A stretch of 64,000 bases of DNA from Elusimicrobiota bacterium (GCA_036676805.1 JAKFCD010000004.1:17687-81686); one strand, 5' to 3'. Positions 20,032-45,079 are shown, counted from the stretch's first letter. Made by a program: numbers and translations. The notes: a model not told the origin generated them from the sequence alone.

Positions 20032-20054
20032 CGATCGGTAACGACGTTCCGCGC

Positions 20055-20098
20055 GATCCCCAATTTTCCACCGGTGGAAAATTGGGGATCGTTTTATG
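20055..20098 (+). terminator. Perfect 36-nt palindrome followed by a T-rich run downstream of ssb (putative intrinsic terminator)
   Basis: gatccccaattttccaccggtggaaaattggggatc (18-nt arms) followed by gttttatgg. Confidence 0.55.
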
Positions 20099-31027: not shown

Positions 31028-32064
31028 TCACCGCCCTGCTCGTAGCACTGCTGCTCGCCGGCTCCCCGCTGCGGGCCGCGGAGCCCCTCCACGGGGCGCC
31101 CGTGGCCGCGCCCAGCGTGACCGTCCTCAAGGACCGCTTCATCGAGGCCGTCAACGCCGCGGAGCGCACCCGCATACTCGATCAGATCGCCCGGACGGCG
31201 CCCCGAACGGGCCAGGACGTGGCGCATCTCTTCGACCTGTTCTCCCGGTTCACCGACGCGTACACGCGCGACTCGGTGATGTCCTCCTTGGCGCGTCTCG
31301 AGCCCGGCAGCCCCCAGCTCGAGCCCCTGTTCATGACCTACCTGCGCCAGCCGGAGCCCGAGGCCCAGCTTTTCGGCGTCAACGGCGCCTTCCGCCTGCG
31401 ATCCCGGGTCGCCTTGCCCATGATCCGCGAAATCGCCGCGCGCAAGTTCGGCGCCAGCAGCGTCACCGAGAACAACATGATGACGGAGCGCAACTCCTGG
31501 TGGACGCAGTACGAGGCCCTGTCGGTGCTGGCGCAATGGGAGCCGGAAAAATCCTATTCGCTCCTCGAGAGAAAGGGGCTGGAAAGCGCCAAGGTCGGCA
31601 CCTTGCTCGGCCGCTACTACTGGAAGAAGACCTTGCCCAAGCTGAAGGGCTGGAGCCAGTCCGGCAACCTGATCGCGACCGAGCGCGCGGCGCTGGCGGC
31701 CGCGGCCCCGATCGACCTCGCCGACGCCCGCGATACCCGCGAGCAGATGCTGAACCTGCTCCGCGACCCCAAGCTCGACCACGAGATCCGCCGGCACATG
31801 GCGCTCAAGATCGGCGTCTCCTCGACCGACGAGGAAGCCGCGGCGCTCGCCGAGGAGCATGACGCCGTCAAGGACGACACCGAGCGCCTGTATTGGGTCA
31901 CCGCGGCCTTCAGCACGCGCAGCCCCAAGGTCATCCCCCTGCTCGTGAGGTACGCCCGCCAAAAGGAGGATGACGCGATGAGGAAGGGGGCGACCCTCCA
32001 GCTCATCGACATGGTCGGCGAGGCCGAGGCCAAGAAGCTCGTCGAGCCCGAAAAAATTAAGTAA
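31024..32064 (+). CDS. Secreted alpha-helical (HEAT-like repeat) hypothetical protein
   Basis: 346 aa from MITALLVALLLAGSPLRAAEP (signal peptide). ATGA overlap with the nagZ stop. The upstream part of the 583-aa track ORF is rejected because it is Arg/Pro-rich and overlaps nagZ. Confidence 0.5.
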   Translation: MITALLVALLLAGSPLRAAEPLHGAPVAAPSVTVLKDRFIEAVNAAERTRILDQIARTAPRTGQDVAHLFDLFSRFTDAYTRDSVMSSLARLEPGSPQLEPLFMTYLRQPEPEAQLFGVNGAFRLRSRVALPMIREIAARKFGASSVTENNMMTERNSWWTQYEALSVLAQWEPEKSYSLLERKGLESAKVGTLLGRYYWKKTLPKLKGWSQSGNLIATERAALAAAAPIDLADARDTREQMLNLLRDPKLDHEIRRHMALKIGVSSTDEEAAALAEEHDAVKDDTERLYWVTAAFSTRSPKVIPLLVRYARQKEDDAMRKGATLQLIDMVGEAEAKKLVEPEKIK

Positions 32065-37583: not shown

Positions 37584-38065
37584 TGGCCAAGAACTCCAAG
37601 CGCTCCGTCGAACGGCTCATCGAGACCGCCGTGCAGGCGCAGAAGCGGGCCTACTGCCCCTATTCGCGCTACCCCGTCGGCGCCGCCGTGCTCACCGCGG
37701 GCGGCCGGGTGTTTCCCGGCTGCAACGTGGAGAACGCGAGCTACGGCCTGGCGATGTGCGCCGAGCGCGCCGCGATCTACCACGCGGTCGCCAGCGGCCA
37801 CGACTCGATCCGGGCCGTCGCCGTCGTCGGCGCCGCGGCCAAGCCCTGCGGAGCGTGCCGGCAGGTCATGCACGAGTTCAGCGACAAGGACACCGACATC
37901 TATCTCGTCGACCTGAATCCGGCCACCGGGCGCCGCAGCGTCCTCAAGACGACGGTCTACAAGCTCCTGCCCCTGGCCTTCGATCCGCTCGCCTCCGGCC
38001 TGCTGCCCAAGAACCCGCGGAACCTGCTGCGACGCAAGACCGGGAAACCCAAGAAGAGGAAATGA
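37583..38065 (+). CDS. cdd: Cytidine deaminase
   Basis: 160 aa. The zinc ligands CAERAA and PCGACRQ are present. Confidence 0.85.
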   Translation: MAKNSKRSVERLIETAVQAQKRAYCPYSRYPVGAAVLTAGGRVFPGCNVENASYGLAMCAERAAIYHAVASGHDSIRAVAVVGAAAKPCGACRQVMHEFSDKDTDIYLVDLNPATGRRSVLKTTVYKLLPLAFDPLASGLLPKNPRNLLRRKTGKPKKRK

Positions 38066-38463
38066 CCATGGACGCTTCTCCTATAAAAAAAATAGCCGAT
38101 TGGATGAAGTCCGCCGATCTCGCCGAGGTCGCCTACCGCAAGGGCGGCACGGGCTTCTCCCTGACCGCCCTCGGAGCGGGCGACCACCCCACGCTCTCCG
38201 CCCCGCCGATGCCCGCCGGGCGCTTCGCGTCCGTCGCGAGCGACGGCGTCGGCGTTTTCCAGTGGAGCGAGCCCGGCAAGGCTCGCAGGACCGAGGAAGG
38301 CGTCGAGCTCGCCGCCGGCGACGTCGTCGGGCTGATCGTGACCGGGTCGGGAGCGTCCAGGCCCGTCGTCTCGCCCCACGCCGGCCGCGTCGCGAAAATC
38401 TTCATCGAGGCGGGGCAGGCCGTGGAGTACGGCCAGCCGATCCTCCTGCTCGAGACCCGCTGA
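38062..38463 (+). CDS. Biotin carboxyl carrier protein (AccB) homolog that lacks the biotinylated lysine (BADC-like)
   Basis: 134 aa. The N-terminus is AccB-like (PIKKIADWMKSADLAEVAY) and a C-terminal biotinyl/lipoyl hammerhead is present. The EAMKM position reads GLIVTGSGASRP, so no Lys is available for biotinylation. Confidence 0.6.
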   Translation: MTMDASPIKKIADWMKSADLAEVAYRKGGTGFSLTALGAGDHPTLSAPPMPAGRFASVASDGVGVFQWSEPGKARRTEEGVELAAGDVVGLIVTGSGASRPVVSPHAGRVAKIFIEAGQAVEYGQPILLLETR

Positions 38464-39836
38464 TGTCAAACGCCGCGATCTTGTGCACGCAGTGCGGGGC
38501 CGCCTCGGCGACCCCGCTCTCGCAGTGCGCGAAATGCGGCGGCAAGAACTCCCGCGTGTGCGGGGGCTGCGGCTTCCAGAACTCGCTCGCCAAGAATTAC
38601 TGCGACAAGTGCGGAAACCCGATCTCGGAGATCGGGCCCGTCGTGGCGCCTCCGCCCCCGACGGCCGTGCCGGACGCGCCCAAGAACGACATCCCGGCGA
38701 CGGTGGTCAAGCATCTCACCAAGGAGCCGGCGGCCAAAAAGGAAGCGCCGCCTCCCGCTGCCCTGCCGCCGGCTAAGATGAAGGCGCTCGAGCCCGGCAA
38801 GCCCAGCGCGTCGCCGCCGGGCGCCCCCCTGCCCGTCGCGGGCCGCCAGGCCGTCGATCCTTTCGCCGCCTCCTCCGTCTCCAACGACCCTTGGGCCCCC
38901 GTCGCCCCGCCGCAGGCCGAGTTCATCCCCAAGCCCTCCCCCTGGGTCGGGACGGCGCGGCGCGCCGTCACCGTCGCGTTCGCCACCTTCGCCGTCGTCG
39001 CGGCGCTCATCGCCGTCTGGCATTGGACGGAGAACAACAAGCCGGAGAACGCCTCCCGCCGCGCCGCCATCCGCTACCTCGAGGACCTGCGCGCGCGCGA
39101 CTACGCCTCGGCGTACGCCCGGTTCTCCGAGATCGCGCGAAAATACTGCACGCTCGAGGAATTCACCGCCTCCCGCGACACCTCGACCTGGACCTGGTCC
39201 GACCTGCGCATCGATCACATCGAGCCGGGCGCCGTGCTCTTCGCCTATCGCCTCAACGTCGAGGGGCAGCCCTCGCGCGTCGACCGCGTCCTTTTCGTCG
39301 AAGAGAACAAGAACTGGGTCCGTCCCTACAGCTGGGTGCTGATGCGCAAGGTCGAGGATGCCTTCGAGAAAAACAACGCGGACATGGGCCTCGTGCTCGC
39401 TCAGGCCGCCGCGACGGTCAATCCCCGCGACCCGATGGCCCGGGGCTACCTCTGCGAGGCCGCCTATTACCGCAAGTCTCCCGTCGACACCGAGCGGCAG
39501 TGCCTGACCGCGATCGAGCTCTCCCACGTCTACCCCTCGAATCTTTCGCTGAAAAGCCTCTACCATCTGCACGCGATCCTGGCAGACACCTATAAGAACG
39601 CGCTGAATAAGCCGGACCTCGCCCTTGACCAGTTCGCGCAGATGCTGGCCTTCCCGAGCATCTCGCCCGCCGACCAGTGCGAGATCCTGCTCGCGCGCTC
39701 CGAGGCGTACCTGACCCTCAGCCGGCCGGGAGAGGCTCTCGCCGACGCGAACCGCGCCGGCCAACTGTGCGTCCGCCCGCAGGACCTCGCCTACATCGAG
39801 GAGATCCGCCGCAAGCTCAACGCGCCCAACCAATGA
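38463..39836 (+). CDS. Membrane protein with an N-terminal double zinc ribbon, a Pro-rich linker, one TM helix and a C-terminal alpha-helical (TPR-like) domain
   Basis: 457 aa from MSNAAILCTQCGAASATPLSQCAKCGG...CGGCGFQ...CDKCG (four CxxC pairs). The TM helix reads AVTVAFATFAVVAALIAVW. TGATG overlap with the upstream stop. Confidence 0.6.
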   Translation: MSNAAILCTQCGAASATPLSQCAKCGGKNSRVCGGCGFQNSLAKNYCDKCGNPISEIGPVVAPPPPTAVPDAPKNDIPATVVKHLTKEPAAKKEAPPPAALPPAKMKALEPGKPSASPPGAPLPVAGRQAVDPFAASSVSNDPWAPVAPPQAEFIPKPSPWVGTARRAVTVAFATFAVVAALIAVWHWTENNKPENASRRAAIRYLEDLRARDYASAYARFSEIARKYCTLEEFTASRDTSTWTWSDLRIDHIEPGAVLFAYRLNVEGQPSRVDRVLFVEENKNWVRPYSWVLMRKVEDAFEKNNADMGLVLAQAAATVNPRDPMARGYLCEAAYYRKSPVDTERQCLTAIELSHVYPSNLSLKSLYHLHAILADTYKNALNKPDLALDQFAQMLAFPSISPADQCEILLARSEAYLTLSRPGEALADANRAGQLCVRPQDLAYIEEIRRKLNAPNQ

Positions 39837-39850
39837 GGATGACGAGTGAT

Positions 39851-39930
39851 GGTGTCAGGCTTGTCGTTGTTGCAGTATTCCTATCGGTCAATTCCCATTG
39901 GAATACTGCAACAACGACAAGCCTGACACC
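39851..39930. repeat. Perfect 31-bp inverted repeat with an 18-nt loop, flanked by direct repeats of about 12-15 bp (MITE- or REP-like palindromic insertion)
   Basis: The arms are ggtgtcaggcttgtcgttgttgcagtattcc and ggaatactgcaacaacgacaagcctgacacc. The flanking direct repeats caatgaggatga lie at 39831-39842 and 39941-39952. The element is about 48% GC in a 70% GC genome. Confidence 0.6.
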
Positions 39931-39956
39931 GGTTATCGCCCAATGAGGATGATGCC

Positions 39957-41318
39957 ATGTTCAAGAAGATCCTGATCGCCAACCGCTCCGAGATCGCCGT
40001 GCGAGTGATCCGCGCCGCGCGCGAGCTCGGAGTCAAGACCGTCGCCGTCTACTCCGACGCCGACCGCGAGTCGCGCCACATCGGCATGGCCGACGAGGCG
40101 GTCTGCATCGGCCCCGGCCCCTCCAAGCTCTCCTACCTCGACCAGGAGGCGGTGCTCTCGGCGGCGAAGAACACCGGCGCCGACGCCATTCATCCCGGGT
40201 ATGGATTCCTCTCCGAAAACGCCGATTTCTCCGAGCTGTGCGCCGAGCGCGGCATCACCTTCATCGGCCCGCCCCCCGCCGCGAGCCGCAAGCTCGGCTT
40301 CAAGAGCGCGGGCAAGGCCGTCGCGGCGCTCGCCCAGGTCCCCGTCGTGCCGGGGACCGAGGGCGACATCACGACCGACGTCTCCAAGGAGGTGGCCGCG
40401 ATCGGCTATCCCGTCCTCATCAAGGCCTCCGCCGGCGGCGGCGGCAAGGGCATGAGGATCGTCCGGACCCCGGAGGAGCTCAAGCCCCAGCTCGAGGCGG
40501 CCGCCACCGAGGCCAAGGCCGCCTTCGGCGACGGCTCGGTGTTCATCGAGAAGCTCTTGGAGCGGCCCCGTCACGTCGAGATTCAGATCATCGCGGACGG
40601 GTTCGGCAACGTGGTCGCTTTCCCGGAGCGCGACTGCACGGTCCAGCGCCGCCACCAGAAGCTCGTCGAGGAATCCCCGTCTCCGGCGATATCGCCGGAG
40701 ATTCGCCGTAATATGCAGGCGGCCGCCATCCGCCTCGCCAAGGCGGCGGGCTATCAGAACGTGGGCACCGTCGAATTCCTTTTCCAGGACGGGAAGTTCT
40801 ATTTCATCGAAGTGAACGCGCGACTGCAGGTCGAGCATCCCGTGACCGAGGCCGTCGCGGGCGTCGACCTCATGGAGTTAATGATAAAAGTCGCCGCGGG
40901 CGAGAAGCTGCCGTTCGGCCAGGAACGCGCCAGCGAGATCCGCTGCCACGCCATCGAGCATCGCATCAACGCCGAGGACCCCGACAACAACTTCATGCCC
41001 TGCCCGGGCAAGATCGAGAGCATCGAGCTGCCCGGCGGGGCGGGCGTGCGCGTGGACACCCACGTCTACGCCGGCTATACCATCCCCAGCTACTACGACA
41101 GCATGATCGCGAAGCTCATCATCTCGGCGGGCGACCGGCCCGCCGCCCTGCGGCGCTCCCTGAGAGCGCTCGGCGAGCTCAAGATCGCCGGCGTCAAGAC
41201 GACCGCCGGGATGCACGCGAAGGTCGTCTCCCATCCCGTGTTCATGAGCGGGGACTTCGACACCCACTTCATCGAGAAGACCGGCCTGCTCGACAAAAAG
41301 GAGCCCGCCCATGCCTGA
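39957..41318 (+). CDS. accC: Acetyl-CoA carboxylase biotin carboxylase subunit
   Basis: 453 aa. The ATP-grasp motif GGGGKGMRIV and the biotin carboxylase N- and C-terminal domains are present. Confidence 0.95.
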   Translation: MFKKILIANRSEIAVRVIRAARELGVKTVAVYSDADRESRHIGMADEAVCIGPGPSKLSYLDQEAVLSAAKNTGADAIHPGYGFLSENADFSELCAERGITFIGPPPAASRKLGFKSAGKAVAALAQVPVVPGTEGDITTDVSKEVAAIGYPVLIKASAGGGGKGMRIVRTPEELKPQLEAAATEAKAAFGDGSVFIEKLLERPRHVEIQIIADGFGNVVAFPERDCTVQRRHQKLVEESPSPAISPEIRRNMQAAAIRLAKAAGYQNVGTVEFLFQDGKFYFIEVNARLQVEHPVTEAVAGVDLMELMIKVAAGEKLPFGQERASEIRCHAIEHRINAEDPDNNFMPCPGKIESIELPGGAGVRVDTHVYAGYTIPSYYDSMIAKLIISAGDRPAALRRSLRALGELKIAGVKTTAGMHAKVVSHPVFMSGDFDTHFIEKTGLLDKKEPAHA

Positions 41319-41907: not shown

Positions 41908-42380
41908 TGATCTCCACGACCAAGATCCTGCCGCTCAAGAAGCTCGCGACCATGCGCGAGCTGTGGCGCTGGGAAGGCCGCGCCGTCGTCTTCACCAACG
42001 GCGTCTTCGATATCCTGCACGCCGGCCACGTGAAGGTGCTCGAGAAGGCCAAGGCGCAGGGCGACCTGCTCGTCGTCGGCGTCAACTCCGACCGCTCCGC
42101 GCGCGCTCTCGACAAGGCCCCCGGCAGGCCTATAAACGCGTGGCGCGACCGCGCCCTCGTGATCGCCGCGCTCGGCTGCGTCGACGCCGTGGTCAAGTTC
42201 GACGAGCCCACCCCGGAGAAGCTGATGGCCCGCCTCAAGCCCGACGTCCAGGTCAAGGGCGGCGACTACAAGCCCTCCGACCTGCCCGAGGCCAGGCACG
42301 CCGGCAAGGTCGTCATCGTGCCGCTCAGGAAGGGCTATTCGACGACGGGCCTCATCAAGCGCCTTCAGGGAAGACGCTAG
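41907..42380 (+). CDS. D-glycero-beta-D-manno-heptose 1-phosphate adenylyltransferase (RfaE/HldE domain II, cytidylyltransferase-like)
   Basis: 157 aa from MISTTKILPL. The HxGH motif reads FTNGVFDILHAGH. TGATG overlap with gmhA. Confidence 0.8.
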   Translation: MISTTKILPLKKLATMRELWRWEGRAVVFTNGVFDILHAGHVKVLEKAKAQGDLLVVGVNSDRSARALDKAPGRPINAWRDRALVIAALGCVDAVVKFDEPTPEKLMARLKPDVQVKGGDYKPSDLPEARHAGKVVIVPLRKGYSTTGLIKRLQGRR

Positions 42381-43119
42381 CTCTCCCGGCAAGACGCTCC
42401 CAGCCGCGCGCGAGGAGAGGATCCCCGGGGTGCAGCGCGCGCGCCATGCGCAGGACCTCGGCGCCCGCCGTTCGCATTCCCTTGAGGTCCAGCGTCATGG
42501 CCAGGTTGCAGTGCACGAGGCTGTTGCGGGGATTGATGCGCAGGGCGGCCATGAAGCAAAGGACGGCCTCGTCCAGGCGTCCGGCCGCACAAAGGGCGGT
42601 CCCGCAGTCGTTCTCAAGGGCGCAGGAAGGAGCGAGCTCCCGCGCCCTGCGCATCGCGGGATCGGCCAGATCGTAGCCGGCGGCGCGCCACGACTGATGC
42701 CACGCCTCACCGTCGTCAGGATCGAGGGCGACGGCGATCAGCGCCTCCCGCTTGGCCCGCTCGCGATCGCCCTTGGCGCCGCGCCGGATCGAGAGCGAGA
42801 AGGCGCGATGGGCGTCCGCCCTCTCCGGCGCCAGCCTCAGAGCCTGGGAGGCGAGCGAGTAGGCCGCGTCATAGTAGCCGAGGCATTCCTGGCCGGCCGC
42901 CTCCCGGCGGAAGCCCCAAAAGGAATACGTCTCCGCCAGGGCGGCGAGAGCCGGGGCGGAACGGGGCGCGTGCGTCAATATCCGCCGGAAACGCTCGGCG
43001 GCGCGCTCGTAGCCTTCGAGGTCGAAAAGGCGCATGAGCCCGCGCGCCTCGAGGAACAAGGACTCGAGGCGCGGAGGCGGAAGGACGGAAGCGGCTCTCG
43101 GCGGACACGCGATCAGCAT
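42355..43119 (-). CDS. TPR-repeat protein
   Basis: 254 aa with TPR-like repeats. Its 3' end converges on the rfaE-II gene and overlaps it by about 26 nt. The true start may be the internal Met (MRLFDLEGYERAAERF). Confidence 0.5.
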   Translation of the reverse strand: MLIACPPRAASVLPPPRLESLFLEARGLMRLFDLEGYERAAERFRRILTHAPRSAPALAALAETYSFWGFRREAAGQECLGYYDAAYSLASQALRLAPERADAHRAFSLSIRRGAKGDRERAKREALIAVALDPDDGEAWHQSWRAAGYDLADPAMRRARELAPSCALENDCGTALCAAGRLDEAVLCFMAALRINPRNSLVHCNLAMTLDLKGMRTAGAEVLRMARALHPGDPLLARGWERLAGRASVFPEGA

Positions 43120-43121
43120 GA

Positions 43122-44945
43122 CTAAGCCGACAGGACGATCTTGAGCGCTTCGCTCAGCGAAGTCTCCCCGGAGGCCGCCAGGTTCAGCGCGGCTTGACGC
43201 AGGCTCGTCATTCCCTCCCGTGCCGCGAGCTCCGTCATCGACTCCCCGCCGTCCGACGACAGGACCAGCTGGCGCATGGCGGACGTGCCGATGGGCATCG
43301 TCTCGAAGATGGGCCGGCGCCCGGCATAGCCGGTCTGCCCGCAGTCGGCGCAGCCGACCCCCCGGTAGATCTCACGCAAGGACGCGAGTTCCGCCTCGGC
43401 CAGAACCCGTTTCTCCGCCTCGGAGAGAGGGACCTGGATCTTGCATTTCGGGCACAGCCGCTTGAGCAGCCGCAGGGCGATCACCAGCCTGAGGCTGGCC
43501 GCCGCGAGATAAGGCTTGATTCCCATCTGCGTCAGGCGGGTGATGGCGGCGGGAGCGCTGTTCGTGTGCAAGGTGGAGAGAACGAGATGCCCCGTGATCG
43601 AGGCCTTCACCGCGATCTCGGCGGTTTCCAGGTCCCGGATCTCGCCGATGAGCATGATGTCGGGGTCCTGGCGCAGCAGGGAGCGCAGCACCGCCTCGAA
43701 GGTCAGGCCGATCGCCGGCTTGACGTGCACCTGCGTGATTCCCGGTATCTGATACTCGATCGGATCCTCGGCCGTCATGATGTTGACGTCGGGCTTGTTG
43801 AGCATGGCGATCATGGAGTAGAGAGTGGTCGTCTTCCCGCTGCCCGTCGGCCCGGTGACCAGGATCAGGCCGTTTTGGGATTGGACGGCTTTCTCGACGC
43901 AATCGAGATCCCGGGGATTGAAGCCGACCTCGGACAGCGCCGTCTTCGAGCCCGCCCCCAGAACGCGCATCACGATCTTCTCGCCGTGCATGCTGGGCAG
44001 GAAGCTGACCCGGAACTCGATCTTCCGGCCATGCGCCGTTATCCGGAATTGGCCGTCCTGGGGCCTTCGCCGCTCCGTGATGATCAGGTTCGAGATGATC
44101 TTGATGCGGGCGCTCAATCTGGCGCCGAGGGAGGAGGGCAGCGCGCACAGCGGATTGAGCGCGCCGTTGAGGCGCACGCGCACCTTGATCTCATTCTCCT
44201 GCGGTTCGACGTGAATGTCGCTGGCGCCCAATTCGACCGCGCTCAGCAGAATCCGGTTCACGCAGTTGATCAACGGCGAATCGTGGACGCGGACCTCCAG
44301 GCTGGAACCCGCTTCCTCGTGCTCCTTCCCGCCCGGCTCGGCCAGGTCCCCCTCCGCCGCCTGCAGCCCCTTCAAGGAATCATGTTTCGAGCCGCCCGTC
44401 CCCGTCCCCGACCCCGGCCTCGGATCCAGGACGATCTCGTGCCGGCCGGCCGGCTCGTCGAGCGCGAGTCCCAGCACGCCGCGGACGGCCTCGAGCACTC
44501 GGAACCCCGGCACCGGCTTTTCCAGGAAGGCGGAGACGTGCAGCGGGAGCTCCTTCATGGCGCCGCGGCTGCCTTTTCCCGCGATCATGATGACCGGCAC
44601 CTTGCGCAGGTCGAAATCGCCGCGCAGCTGCAGAAGGAGCTCGTAGCCGTTCATCATGGGCAGGTCGAAATCCAGCAGAACGAGGTCGGGACGGTCCGCG
44701 AGAGCCCGCCGCAGGCCCTCGGCGCCGTCGAACGCCTCGACGACCTCATACCCGTTTTCCACGAGCAGGCGGCAAACGACGGAGCGATAGTCCTGGCTGT
44801 CGTCGACCACCAGCACCTTCGGAGGCTTGGGGCCTCGCCCCGCGGGCTCGGAAGAGGCGCCGCCCTTGAGCAGGGAGTCGAGTTCGGCCAGCAGCAACTC
44901 GGCGCGGATCGGAGCGGCGTGCGTCGTCGGGAGCGATGTGGACAT
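43122..44945 (-). CDS. Response-regulator receiver domain fused to a GspE/PilB-family secretion ATPase
   Basis: 607 aa from MSTSLPTTHAAP. REC: VLVVDDSQ...LLDFDLPMMNG. ATPase: Walker A GPTGSGKTT, Walker B DIMLIGEIRD, His box GHLVLSTLHTN, and a tetracysteine motif CPKCK...CADCGQTGY. Confidence 0.85.
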   Translation of the reverse strand: MSTSLPTTHAAPIRAELLLAELDSLLKGGASSEPAGRGPKPPKVLVVDDSQDYRSVVCRLLVENGYEVVEAFDGAEGLRRALADRPDLVLLDFDLPMMNGYELLLQLRGDFDLRKVPVIMIAGKGSRGAMKELPLHVSAFLEKPVPGFRVLEAVRGVLGLALDEPAGRHEIVLDPRPGSGTGTGGSKHDSLKGLQAAEGDLAEPGGKEHEEAGSSLEVRVHDSPLINCVNRILLSAVELGASDIHVEPQENEIKVRVRLNGALNPLCALPSSLGARLSARIKIISNLIITERRRPQDGQFRITAHGRKIEFRVSFLPSMHGEKIVMRVLGAGSKTALSEVGFNPRDLDCVEKAVQSQNGLILVTGPTGSGKTTTLYSMIAMLNKPDVNIMTAEDPIEYQIPGITQVHVKPAIGLTFEAVLRSLLRQDPDIMLIGEIRDLETAEIAVKASITGHLVLSTLHTNSAPAAITRLTQMGIKPYLAAASLRLVIALRLLKRLCPKCKIQVPLSEAEKRVLAEAELASLREIYRGVGCADCGQTGYAGRRPIFETMPIGTSAMRQLVLSSDGGESMTELAAREGMTSLRQAALNLAASGETSLSEALKIVLSA

Positions 44946-45051
44946 GTCGGGTCGGCGGGCGTCTCGAAATCGTTTCAAGAGTATAGCCGCGAAGCGACCC
45001 GGAGCGAATAGAAGGCCCGCAACGAATTTATGTCGGCCCCGTGACACGGGG

Positions 45052-45079
45052 AAAAAATGCCCCCGCCTTTCGGCGAGGG
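45052..45079 (-). terminator. Intrinsic terminator for the 45100-45582 gene. On the minus strand it reads CCCUCGCC-GAAA-GGCGGGGG followed by CAUUUUUU.
   Basis: The plus strand reads aaaaaatgcccccgcctttcggcgaggg. There is an 8-bp stem (one G-U pair), a GAAA loop and a U6 tract. Confidence 0.55.

Follow-up and report, generated by a model that had tools for sequence, protein, structure and literature searches.

A stretch of 64,000 nucleotides from an Elusimicrobiota bacterium (GCA_036676805.1, JAKFCD010000004.1:17687-81686; the whole stretch is called the window below) contains a non-coding, almost fully palindromic segment of 97 bp (39843-39939) between a zinc-ribbon protein gene (ZnR) and accC, the gene for biotin carboxylase. 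This segment is very probably a mobile element resembling a miniature inverted-repeat transposable element (MITE), an element made up of little more than its terminal inverted repeats. It appears to have been inserted into a ZnR-accC junction of only 10 bp, and the insertion adds 110 bases between the two genes. Comparison of related loci shows, at the level of sequence, that the element is a member of a small, low-copy, dispersed family found in uncultured high-GC Elusimicrobiota of one genus-level clade, and that it has been gained, lost and partly deleted among close relatives, with losses that are either precise or partial. The features expected of a MITE were found: the inverted repeats are terminal, the flanking duplication is single in empty alleles, copies are dispersed and polymorphic, and the element is small and does not code for protein.

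The original prediction had reported a perfect 31-bp inverted repeat with an 18-nt loop, of low GC content in high-GC surroundings and bracketed by direct repeats. Each of these observations could be reproduced. The inverted repeat is located at 39851-39930, its arms are complementary at all 31 positions, and the GC content is 48.7% for the hairpin compared to 68.2% for the window. A 31-mer inverted match was present in 0 of 100 shuffles, and no other long hairpin of the same sequence is found in the window. The direct repeat CCAATGAGGATGA is identical at 13 of 13 positions, occurs exactly twice in the window and was not seen in two copies in any of 100 shuffled sequences. As had been claimed, the left copy includes the stop codon of the ZnR gene and the right copy provides the ribosome-binding site of accC, with GAGGA located 7 nt upstream of the accC ATG (39957).

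Folding of the hairpin yields -74.9 kcal/mol as RNA (z = -10.5) and -41.2 kcal/mol as DNA (z = -13.6), and the RNA fold leaves the accC ribosome-binding site uncovered. At the gathering threshold of Rfam 15 the window has zero matches; below it only look-alikes of microRNA precursors were obtained, of the kind that any long perfect hairpin yields. The longest coding potential within the 97 bp is a single open reading frame (ORF) of 25 codons (39849-39926, MVSGLSLLQYSYRSIPIGILQQRQA*), which ends at a TGA in the right terminus. It is opened by an ATG at the edge of the element, 9 nt downstream of the Shine-Dalgarno sequence in the left repeat copy. Its start, ATG-GTG-TCA, is common to most copies of the element; the peptide is not conserved in short variants, and the ORF was therefore treated as incidental.

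Orthologous loci were collected via homologues of the ZnR protein. This protein has no Pfam match and 164 homologues, all from Elusimicrobiota metagenome-assembled genomes (MAGs) or metagenomes, and every named one is an Elusimicrobiota MAG. The gene order PNP - cdd - BCCP-like - ZnR - accC - gmhA - rfaE-like (BCCP, biotin carboxyl carrier protein) is kept in all orthologous loci. The region from 28.6 to 52.4 kb of the window is collinear with locus L006 at about 90% identity, and the accC orthologues of the collinear loci L006 and L015 contain the domains Biotin_carb_N, CPSase_L_D2 and Biotin_carb_C.

Comparison of the regions upstream of accC, which the original prediction had proposed, revealed hairpin-free alleles in four related Elusimicrobiota lineages (L006/L007, L001-L004, L017 and L018/L019). 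In these empty alleles the ZnR stop and the accC start are separated by 10 bp, and the repeat sequence is present once. The filled allele of the window reads ...CCAATGAGGATGA, 97 bp, CCAATGAGGATGATGCCATG; the empty alleles read ...CCAATGAGGATGATGCCATG in L006/L007 and ...CAGTGAGGATGACGACATG in L001-L004, and the gap is likewise 10 bp in L017 and L018/L019. De Bruijn assemblers cannot make such empty alleles by collapsing a 13-bp repeat, and the empty alleles also derive from independent samples and assemblers. The single repeat copy in empty alleles supports the claim that the direct repeats are the target-site duplication of a small non-autonomous mobile element.

Three other assemblies (L015, L016 and L013) contain the hairpin at the identical position and with the same sub-terminal segments. 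Left and right flanks were compared by local alignment against 500 shuffles. The repeat matches at 13 of 13 positions in the window (0/500 shuffles), at 16 of 19 in L015 (1/500) and over 18 nt with one gap in L013 (4/500), which shows a target duplication of at least 13 bp that, judging from the orthologues with their mismatches, is probably 16-19 bp long. In L015 the left repeat together with CGA (to 39845) forms a 16-nt repeat.

The closest relative by the ZnR gene, L005 (92.4% nucleotide identity), carries a remnant: of the insert only the first 24 nt are left, between the two retained copies of the repeat. The deletion spans TTGTCG to TTATCG and is of the type that slippage would be expected to cause in a long palindrome. 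The five contigs L001-L005, four of which are without the hairpin, are Logan contigs from different runs, and all of them stop within the first 40-70 nt of accC; these ends are probably due to graph branching in the conserved accC of co-occurring strains and not to an effect of the hairpin.

A scan of metagenome contigs with the outer 20 nt of the arm as query identified two more loci, both in the same metagenome as L013. The L010 copy is located between a patatin-like gene and a convergent gene, the L011 copy between a tetratricopeptide repeat (TPR) gene and speA. Both have the structure GAT-GGTGTCAGGCTTGTCGTTGTTGCA...GCCTGACACC-AA with a shorter, different and again self-complementary centre. 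The outer 24 nt of the window arm are common to L010, L011 and L021, and its outer 11 nt or so to the element at L006:3435. The termini of the family are (GAT)GGTGYCAGGC...GCCTGRCACC(AA), and the interiors are variable but self-complementary.

The TPR-speA junction shows the same range of alleles: it is empty in L024 (...CCGTATTGATATAATCTCACAATG), contains a long form with a 28-bp perfect stem in L021/L022 and retains a remnant, TGACACC and the right tail only, in L023. The loops of the L021 copy (GTCGGTTCATTC) and the window copy (ATCGGTCAATTC) are homologous. At this site the native end of the gene (TAT TGA) is found on the right side of the element, and a diverged second copy (NAC TAR) ends the gene on the left side. 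The right tail of L023 agrees with the native end at 14 of 17 positions. Such a pattern would fit a duplication of about 16 nt as well.

A profile of four copies detected a further candidate at L006:3422-3522 (E = 0.005), which reads TAA-GAA-GGTGCCAGGCC, an unrelated perfect palindrome, and then GGCCTGGCACC-AG. The element comprises 79 nt, folds at -78 kcal/mol and is a probable distant member of the family. The junction of the HEAT-repeat gene and the GAF-HD gene in which it lies is filled in L006 and empty in the window (32044/32045), L017 and L018/19. Altogether, four loci were found (the accC, TPR-speA and HEAT-GAF junctions and the site downstream of the patatin gene), of which three also occur as empty alleles, and the copies sit at gene 3' ends or in tight operon junctions. 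The search for additional copies thus uncovered related hairpins at unrelated loci (L010, L011/L021 and L006:3422-3522) in related organisms. Upstream of the L010 copy, directly after the patatin stop codon TAG (L010:975-990), the sequence GGGTGTCCCC resembles a partial element terminus and is perhaps what is left of a copy inserted earlier.

With these loci at hand, it is scarcely credible that the hairpin is a one-off palindrome made by a template switch during replication or repair, or an artefact of assembly. Snap-back synthesis can generate perfect palindromes, and the window does have a single copy. Against such an origin, the same sequence is present in independent assemblies from other samples (L013, L015 and L016), related copies exist at other loci, the GC content is foreign to the locus, and no source for the arm sequence is found elsewhere in the window.

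A covariance model of seven copies, run without filters on the window and 14 loci (about 240 kb), detected no further member; a match at L026:1096-1170 (27 bits) is GC-rich coding sequence and was rejected. Several other matches were dismissed as chance: the genome contigs L008 and L009, which match the arm 20-mer CAGGCTTGTCGTTGTTGCAG and have no hairpin, and the metagenome contigs L012 and L014, in which the match lies within coding sequence. Three scans of viral contigs returned nothing but L027:1617-1688 (an IMG/VR contig, P2-like prophage), a match at chance level for the pattern used; there, CTGGTGTCAGGCACCAG and CTGGTGCCTGACACCAG form two small local palindromes in inverted orientation, an architecture unlike that of the Elusimicrobiota hairpins. 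A BLAST search of plasmids with the element gave no match. Resemblances to attC, dif/Xer, IHF sites and CRISPR repeats were inspected by eye and dropped, as no defining motif is present.

The original prediction had called the element MITE/REP-like, and only the first half of this term can be kept. A repetitive extragenic palindrome (REP) or REPIN that a RAYT (Y1/HUH) transposase moves in the form of single-stranded DNA would explain the long symmetric hairpin, the paired changes on both arms, which are also known from REPINs, the intergenic position and the apparently long persistence at one site. REP/REPIN and IS200/IS605-type insertion leave no target duplication, and here a clear one flanks the element. 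In addition, there is one copy per 64 kb compared to hundreds per genome, the termini GGTGYCAGGC lack a GTAG-type head, and no Y1 transposase is encoded among the approximately 30 window ORFs scanned. Such an origin is accordingly regarded as very unlikely.

We propose that the MITE-like element would be mobilised by a transposase or integrase that acts in trans and makes widely staggered cuts. Integration has duplicated the junction, so that the ZnR stop codon is preserved in the left copy, and the ribosome-binding site of accC with its start context in the right one. The insertion next to accC, a presumably essential gene, may be tolerated because the duplication restores both the stop codon and the overlapping Shine-Dalgarno sequence of the next gene. 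Since accC lies 10 bp from the upstream stop in empty alleles and no promoter-like site is present in the insert, the element is probably transcribed within the operon. The operon transcript would then carry it as a very stable RNA hairpin. The 31-bp RNA duplex is a plausible RNase III substrate or block to 3' exonucleases and could uncouple the decay of the upstream message from accC.

That the hairpin is a repeated transcription terminator, possibly of an unconventional type without a U-tract, is highly improbable. It does have a very stable stem and follows directly after stop codons, once (L010) between convergent genes. In agreement with the original prediction, which had not considered it a classical terminator, no U-tract is present 3' of the hairpin, the stem being followed by GGTTATCGCCC, and simple scans detected neither terminator-like nor sigma70-like sites there. 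None of the copies is followed by a T-run. The hairpin precedes accC, which has no promoter-like site in the 120-bp gap, and the 10-bp spacing in empty alleles implies co-transcription. Furthermore, terminators that arose independently at unrelated loci would not have 24-31 identical bases in common.

The evolution of the element was compared to that of its host genes. The identity-matrix tree, with W for the window, is (((W,L005),L001),L006),(L015,L013),L017,L018. Filled and empty alleles are interleaved on this ZnR/accC identity tree, a distribution that calls for two or more precise losses, for two gains or for transfer of alleles. Over the 97 bp the window copy differs from L015 at 6 and from L013 at 9 positions, and L015 differs from L013 at 13. 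The resulting three-taxon branches of the element (W, L015, L013) are 1, 5 and 8, whereas 14.0, 5.7 and 9.1 are predicted from accC third codon positions. One change on the W branch compared to 14 expected (P about 1e-5) is too few, and the window copy would thus have split from the L015/L013 ancestor much later than the host genes did; alternatively, it may have been held at the family consensus. Taken together, the branch lengths show that the host genes and the element, as read from its sequence, have decoupled histories. Exchange between copies is also suggested by L011, which shares an odd imperfect right arm with its paralogue L010 and not with its orthologue L021. Sliding identity of the window against L015 and L006 gave no clear block that would mark a recombination tract around the hairpin.

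The arms have diverged by 1.6-6.5%, compared to 20-24% at accC third codon positions, and they have changed in pairs. In L015 two adjacent pairs are altered on both arms (GT>TG / AC>CA; CTTGTCG/CGACAAG to CTTTGCG/CGCAAAG) and the 31-bp stem is still perfect. At pair 11 the window has T-A, L021 has C-G and L010 has T.G. Three pairs are changed on both sides in an alignment of six sequences (4/500 shuffles), and RNAalifold predicts 25 pairs from seven sequences, 8 of them with compensatory changes. The symmetry of the arms may be due to selection for the hairpin or to mechanical arm-to-arm or copy-to-copy conversion, and the data fit both.

These observations bear on an explanation that we consider unlikely and nevertheless take seriously, namely that the hairpin is a cis-regulatory RNA selected by the host that uncouples accC from the upstream genes (as an RNase III site, a barrier to 3' exonucleases or an attenuator), with mobility being secondary or historical. 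It would account for the stability of the fold and for perfect stems with compensated pairs in orthologues whose synonymous-like sites have diverged by 20-24%. All three pairable positions that are not Watson-Crick pairs (the terminal pair in L013, pair 11 in L010 and one in the inner stem of L021) are G.U on the sense strand, which weakly favours an RNA, or sense-strand, structure. The hairpin also has the same orientation after the stop codon at three co-directional junctions, and all four sites are at gene 3' ends. However, three G.U against zero A.C is a weak bias (p about 0.125), and the agreement in orientation at three informative sites is not significant. Close relatives (L001-4, L006, L017 and L018) have no hairpin at the same junction, and the deletion remnants in L005 and L023 persist. 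The divergence between L015 and L013 is near-neutral (13/97), and conversion between copies, as in L011, which is nearer to its paralogue than to its orthologue, accounts for the conservation equally well.

Several observations weigh against the interpretation as a MITE-like mobile element. Among the approximately 30 window ORFs scanned, none encodes a transposase, an integrase or a Y1 enzyme, and no autonomous partner with these termini was found. The duplication of 13-19 bp exceeds that of most bacterial insertion sequences (IS) and MITEs. At the other loci the duplications are less clear: the copies at the TPR-speA site are degenerate and too diverged for significance against each other, and the L010 and L006 sites show weak or ambiguous repeats only (the 8-mer GAAGGCGG and the 7-mer AAATAAG). 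One copy in the 64-kb window and none in L017, L018, L024 and L025 is a very low number for a MITE. The arm 20-mer has no true match in 185,579 species-representative genomes, and the copies are drawn from metagenome assemblies of several strains and not from single genomes. Finally, transcription of the element and an effect on accC, likely exerted as an intercistronic RNA hairpin, are what we infer from the gene arrangement and the fold.

A second, unrelated family of palindromes was observed. A perfect palindrome of 38 bp, CGATCCCCAATTTTCCACC followed by GGTGGAAAATTGGGGATCG and then TTTT, is located at 20054-20091 of the window, just after ssb. The related palindrome TTATCCCCGACATTCCACCGGTGGGAAAATGGGGATAA lies in L015 (about 700-770) in an insertion of approximately 100 bp at the ATGA stop-start overlap of Sua5 and LMWPc, with ATGA duplicated on both sides; the insertion is missing from the window, L006, L017 and L018. 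That a second palindrome family behaves alike at this junction suggests that selection filters for insertions that duplicate the junction. More speculatively, the hairpins might be non-autonomous partners of an integrase, casposase/Cas1-like or a new enzyme, that nicks the strands 13-19 bp apart, and might colonise tight junctions because the long duplication regenerates stop and start; or they might be domesticated intercistronic RNA hairpins kept perfect by selection. We consider this proposal quite unlikely. If it were true, either a partner with such a wide stagger or a domesticated hairpin would represent a new bacterial type of 'junction-safe' mobile element.

A literature search found no paper describing a MITE family in Elusimicrobia, the sole paper with both terms being a general IS survey, and searches for the terminal 10-mers returned unrelated papers only. 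The element would represent a family of small palindromic mobile elements that is the first to be documented in uncultured Elusimicrobiota. The accC junction offers a clean natural series of empty site, full element, compensated variants and deletion remnant, which indicates that an insertion before a presumably essential and translationally adjacent gene can be harmless if both the stop codon and the ribosome-binding site are part of the duplication. Only the length of the duplication and the arms, which have stayed perfect, could point to a new mechanism; otherwise the element appears to be ordinary selfish DNA, to be annotated as a repeat and not as a regulator.

Coordinates of the element, its flanking genes and the related empty site in the window
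Feature	Position	Strand	Remark
Zinc-ribbon / transmembrane / TPR-like protein (ZnR), upstream gene	38466..39836	+	ORF; stop TGA 39834-39836
Left target-duplication copy CCAATGAGGATGA, includes ZnR stop	39830..39842	+	single copy in empty alleles
Left sub-terminal segment CGAGTGAT; terminal GAT common to family members at other loci	39843..39850	+	
Left arm / terminal inverted repeat GGTGTCAGGCTTGTCGTTGTTGCAGTATTCC	39851..39881	+	
Loop TATCGGTCAATTCCCATT; homologous to the loop of the L021 copy, GTCGGTTCATTC	39882..39899	+	
Right arm, perfect reverse complement of left arm	39900..39930	+	
Right sub-terminal segment GGTTATCGC; 7/9 conserved in orthologous copies	39931..39939	+	
Right target-duplication copy with accC Shine-Dalgarno GAGGA (39945-39949)	39940..39952	+	
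accC (biotin carboxylase), downstream gene	39957..41318	+	ORF
Empty target site for the L006:3422-3522 family member	32040..32062	+	HEAT-repeat / GAF-HD junction

Two further observations concern the neighbouring genes. The BCCP-like gene (38064-38463) precedes the ZnR gene, which separates it from accC. Only a weak Biotin_lipoyl match was found, in orthologues, and the protein has VTGSG in place of the usual biotinyl-lysine motif EAMKM; the gene product may be a biotin-less paralogue of AccB. Downstream of accC, the window and L006 differ by an indel of 2.67 kb (42380-45053 compared to L006:13826-14008). The window has a TPR gene and a response-regulator/T2SSE ATPase gene at this site, and L006 has 182 bp only, with another hairpin (ACTGTTGTCAACAACAGT...ACTGTTGTTGACAACAGT and TTT). 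L017 and L018 retain the T2SSE gene, and L013:2874-2899 contains a short palindrome similar to this L006 hairpin.

The footprint of the element was compared to those of known mobile elements. Casposons have target duplications of 15 bp, occasionally 16 or 22 bp, and their target overlaps a gene 3' end (PMC5137440). The element may resemble them in its duplication of 13-19 bp and in the overlap with gene 3' ends; casposons, in contrast, are large and encode Cas1 and PolB, so that the likeness is an analogy of footprints and a lead only. Among classical bacterial IS, IS4 with 11-13 bp and IS186 with 10-13 bp come closest to a duplication of 13 bp, a length at the upper end of what such IS produce. 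The termini of the element are, as we take it, unlike the C(A/T)-type ends of the IS4 family, no DDE transposase is encoded among the approximately 30 window ORFs scanned, and the duplication in the orthologues may reach 16-19 bp.

With REP/REPIN elements and their RAYT the element shares the symmetric hairpin, compensatory evolution of the arms and retention at fixed intergenic sites; it departs from them in copy number, in the presence of a duplication and in the head motif. The mycobacterial interspersed repetitive units (MIRUs) are short elements in intercistronic junctions of operons that preserve the flanking stop and start signals. The element likewise lodges in a junction with preserved signals, but MIRUs are tandem and non-palindromic with small coupling ORFs, whereas the element is a single hairpin with a duplicated junction.

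The closest parallels are the Correia/NEMIS elements of Neisseria and the ERIC/IRU elements of enterobacteria, which are also approximately 100 bp long and non-coding and have long terminal inverted repeats that form a hairpin over their whole length. They too are inserted in transcribed intergenic regions next to genes and occur as filled and empty alleles among relatives. These families can act on mRNA, for example as RNase III or stability determinants, and by analogy the element might do the same. Nevertheless, it differs from them in its duplication (13-19 bp compared to the TA dinucleotide), its very low copy number, its uncultured Elusimicrobiota host and its arms, whose pairing has remained perfect even where orthologous copies are old. 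The element is not a member of the Correia/ERIC families, since it resembles none of them in sequence, has no match in Rfam and makes another kind of duplication, although it appears to be a hairpin-type MITE just as they are.

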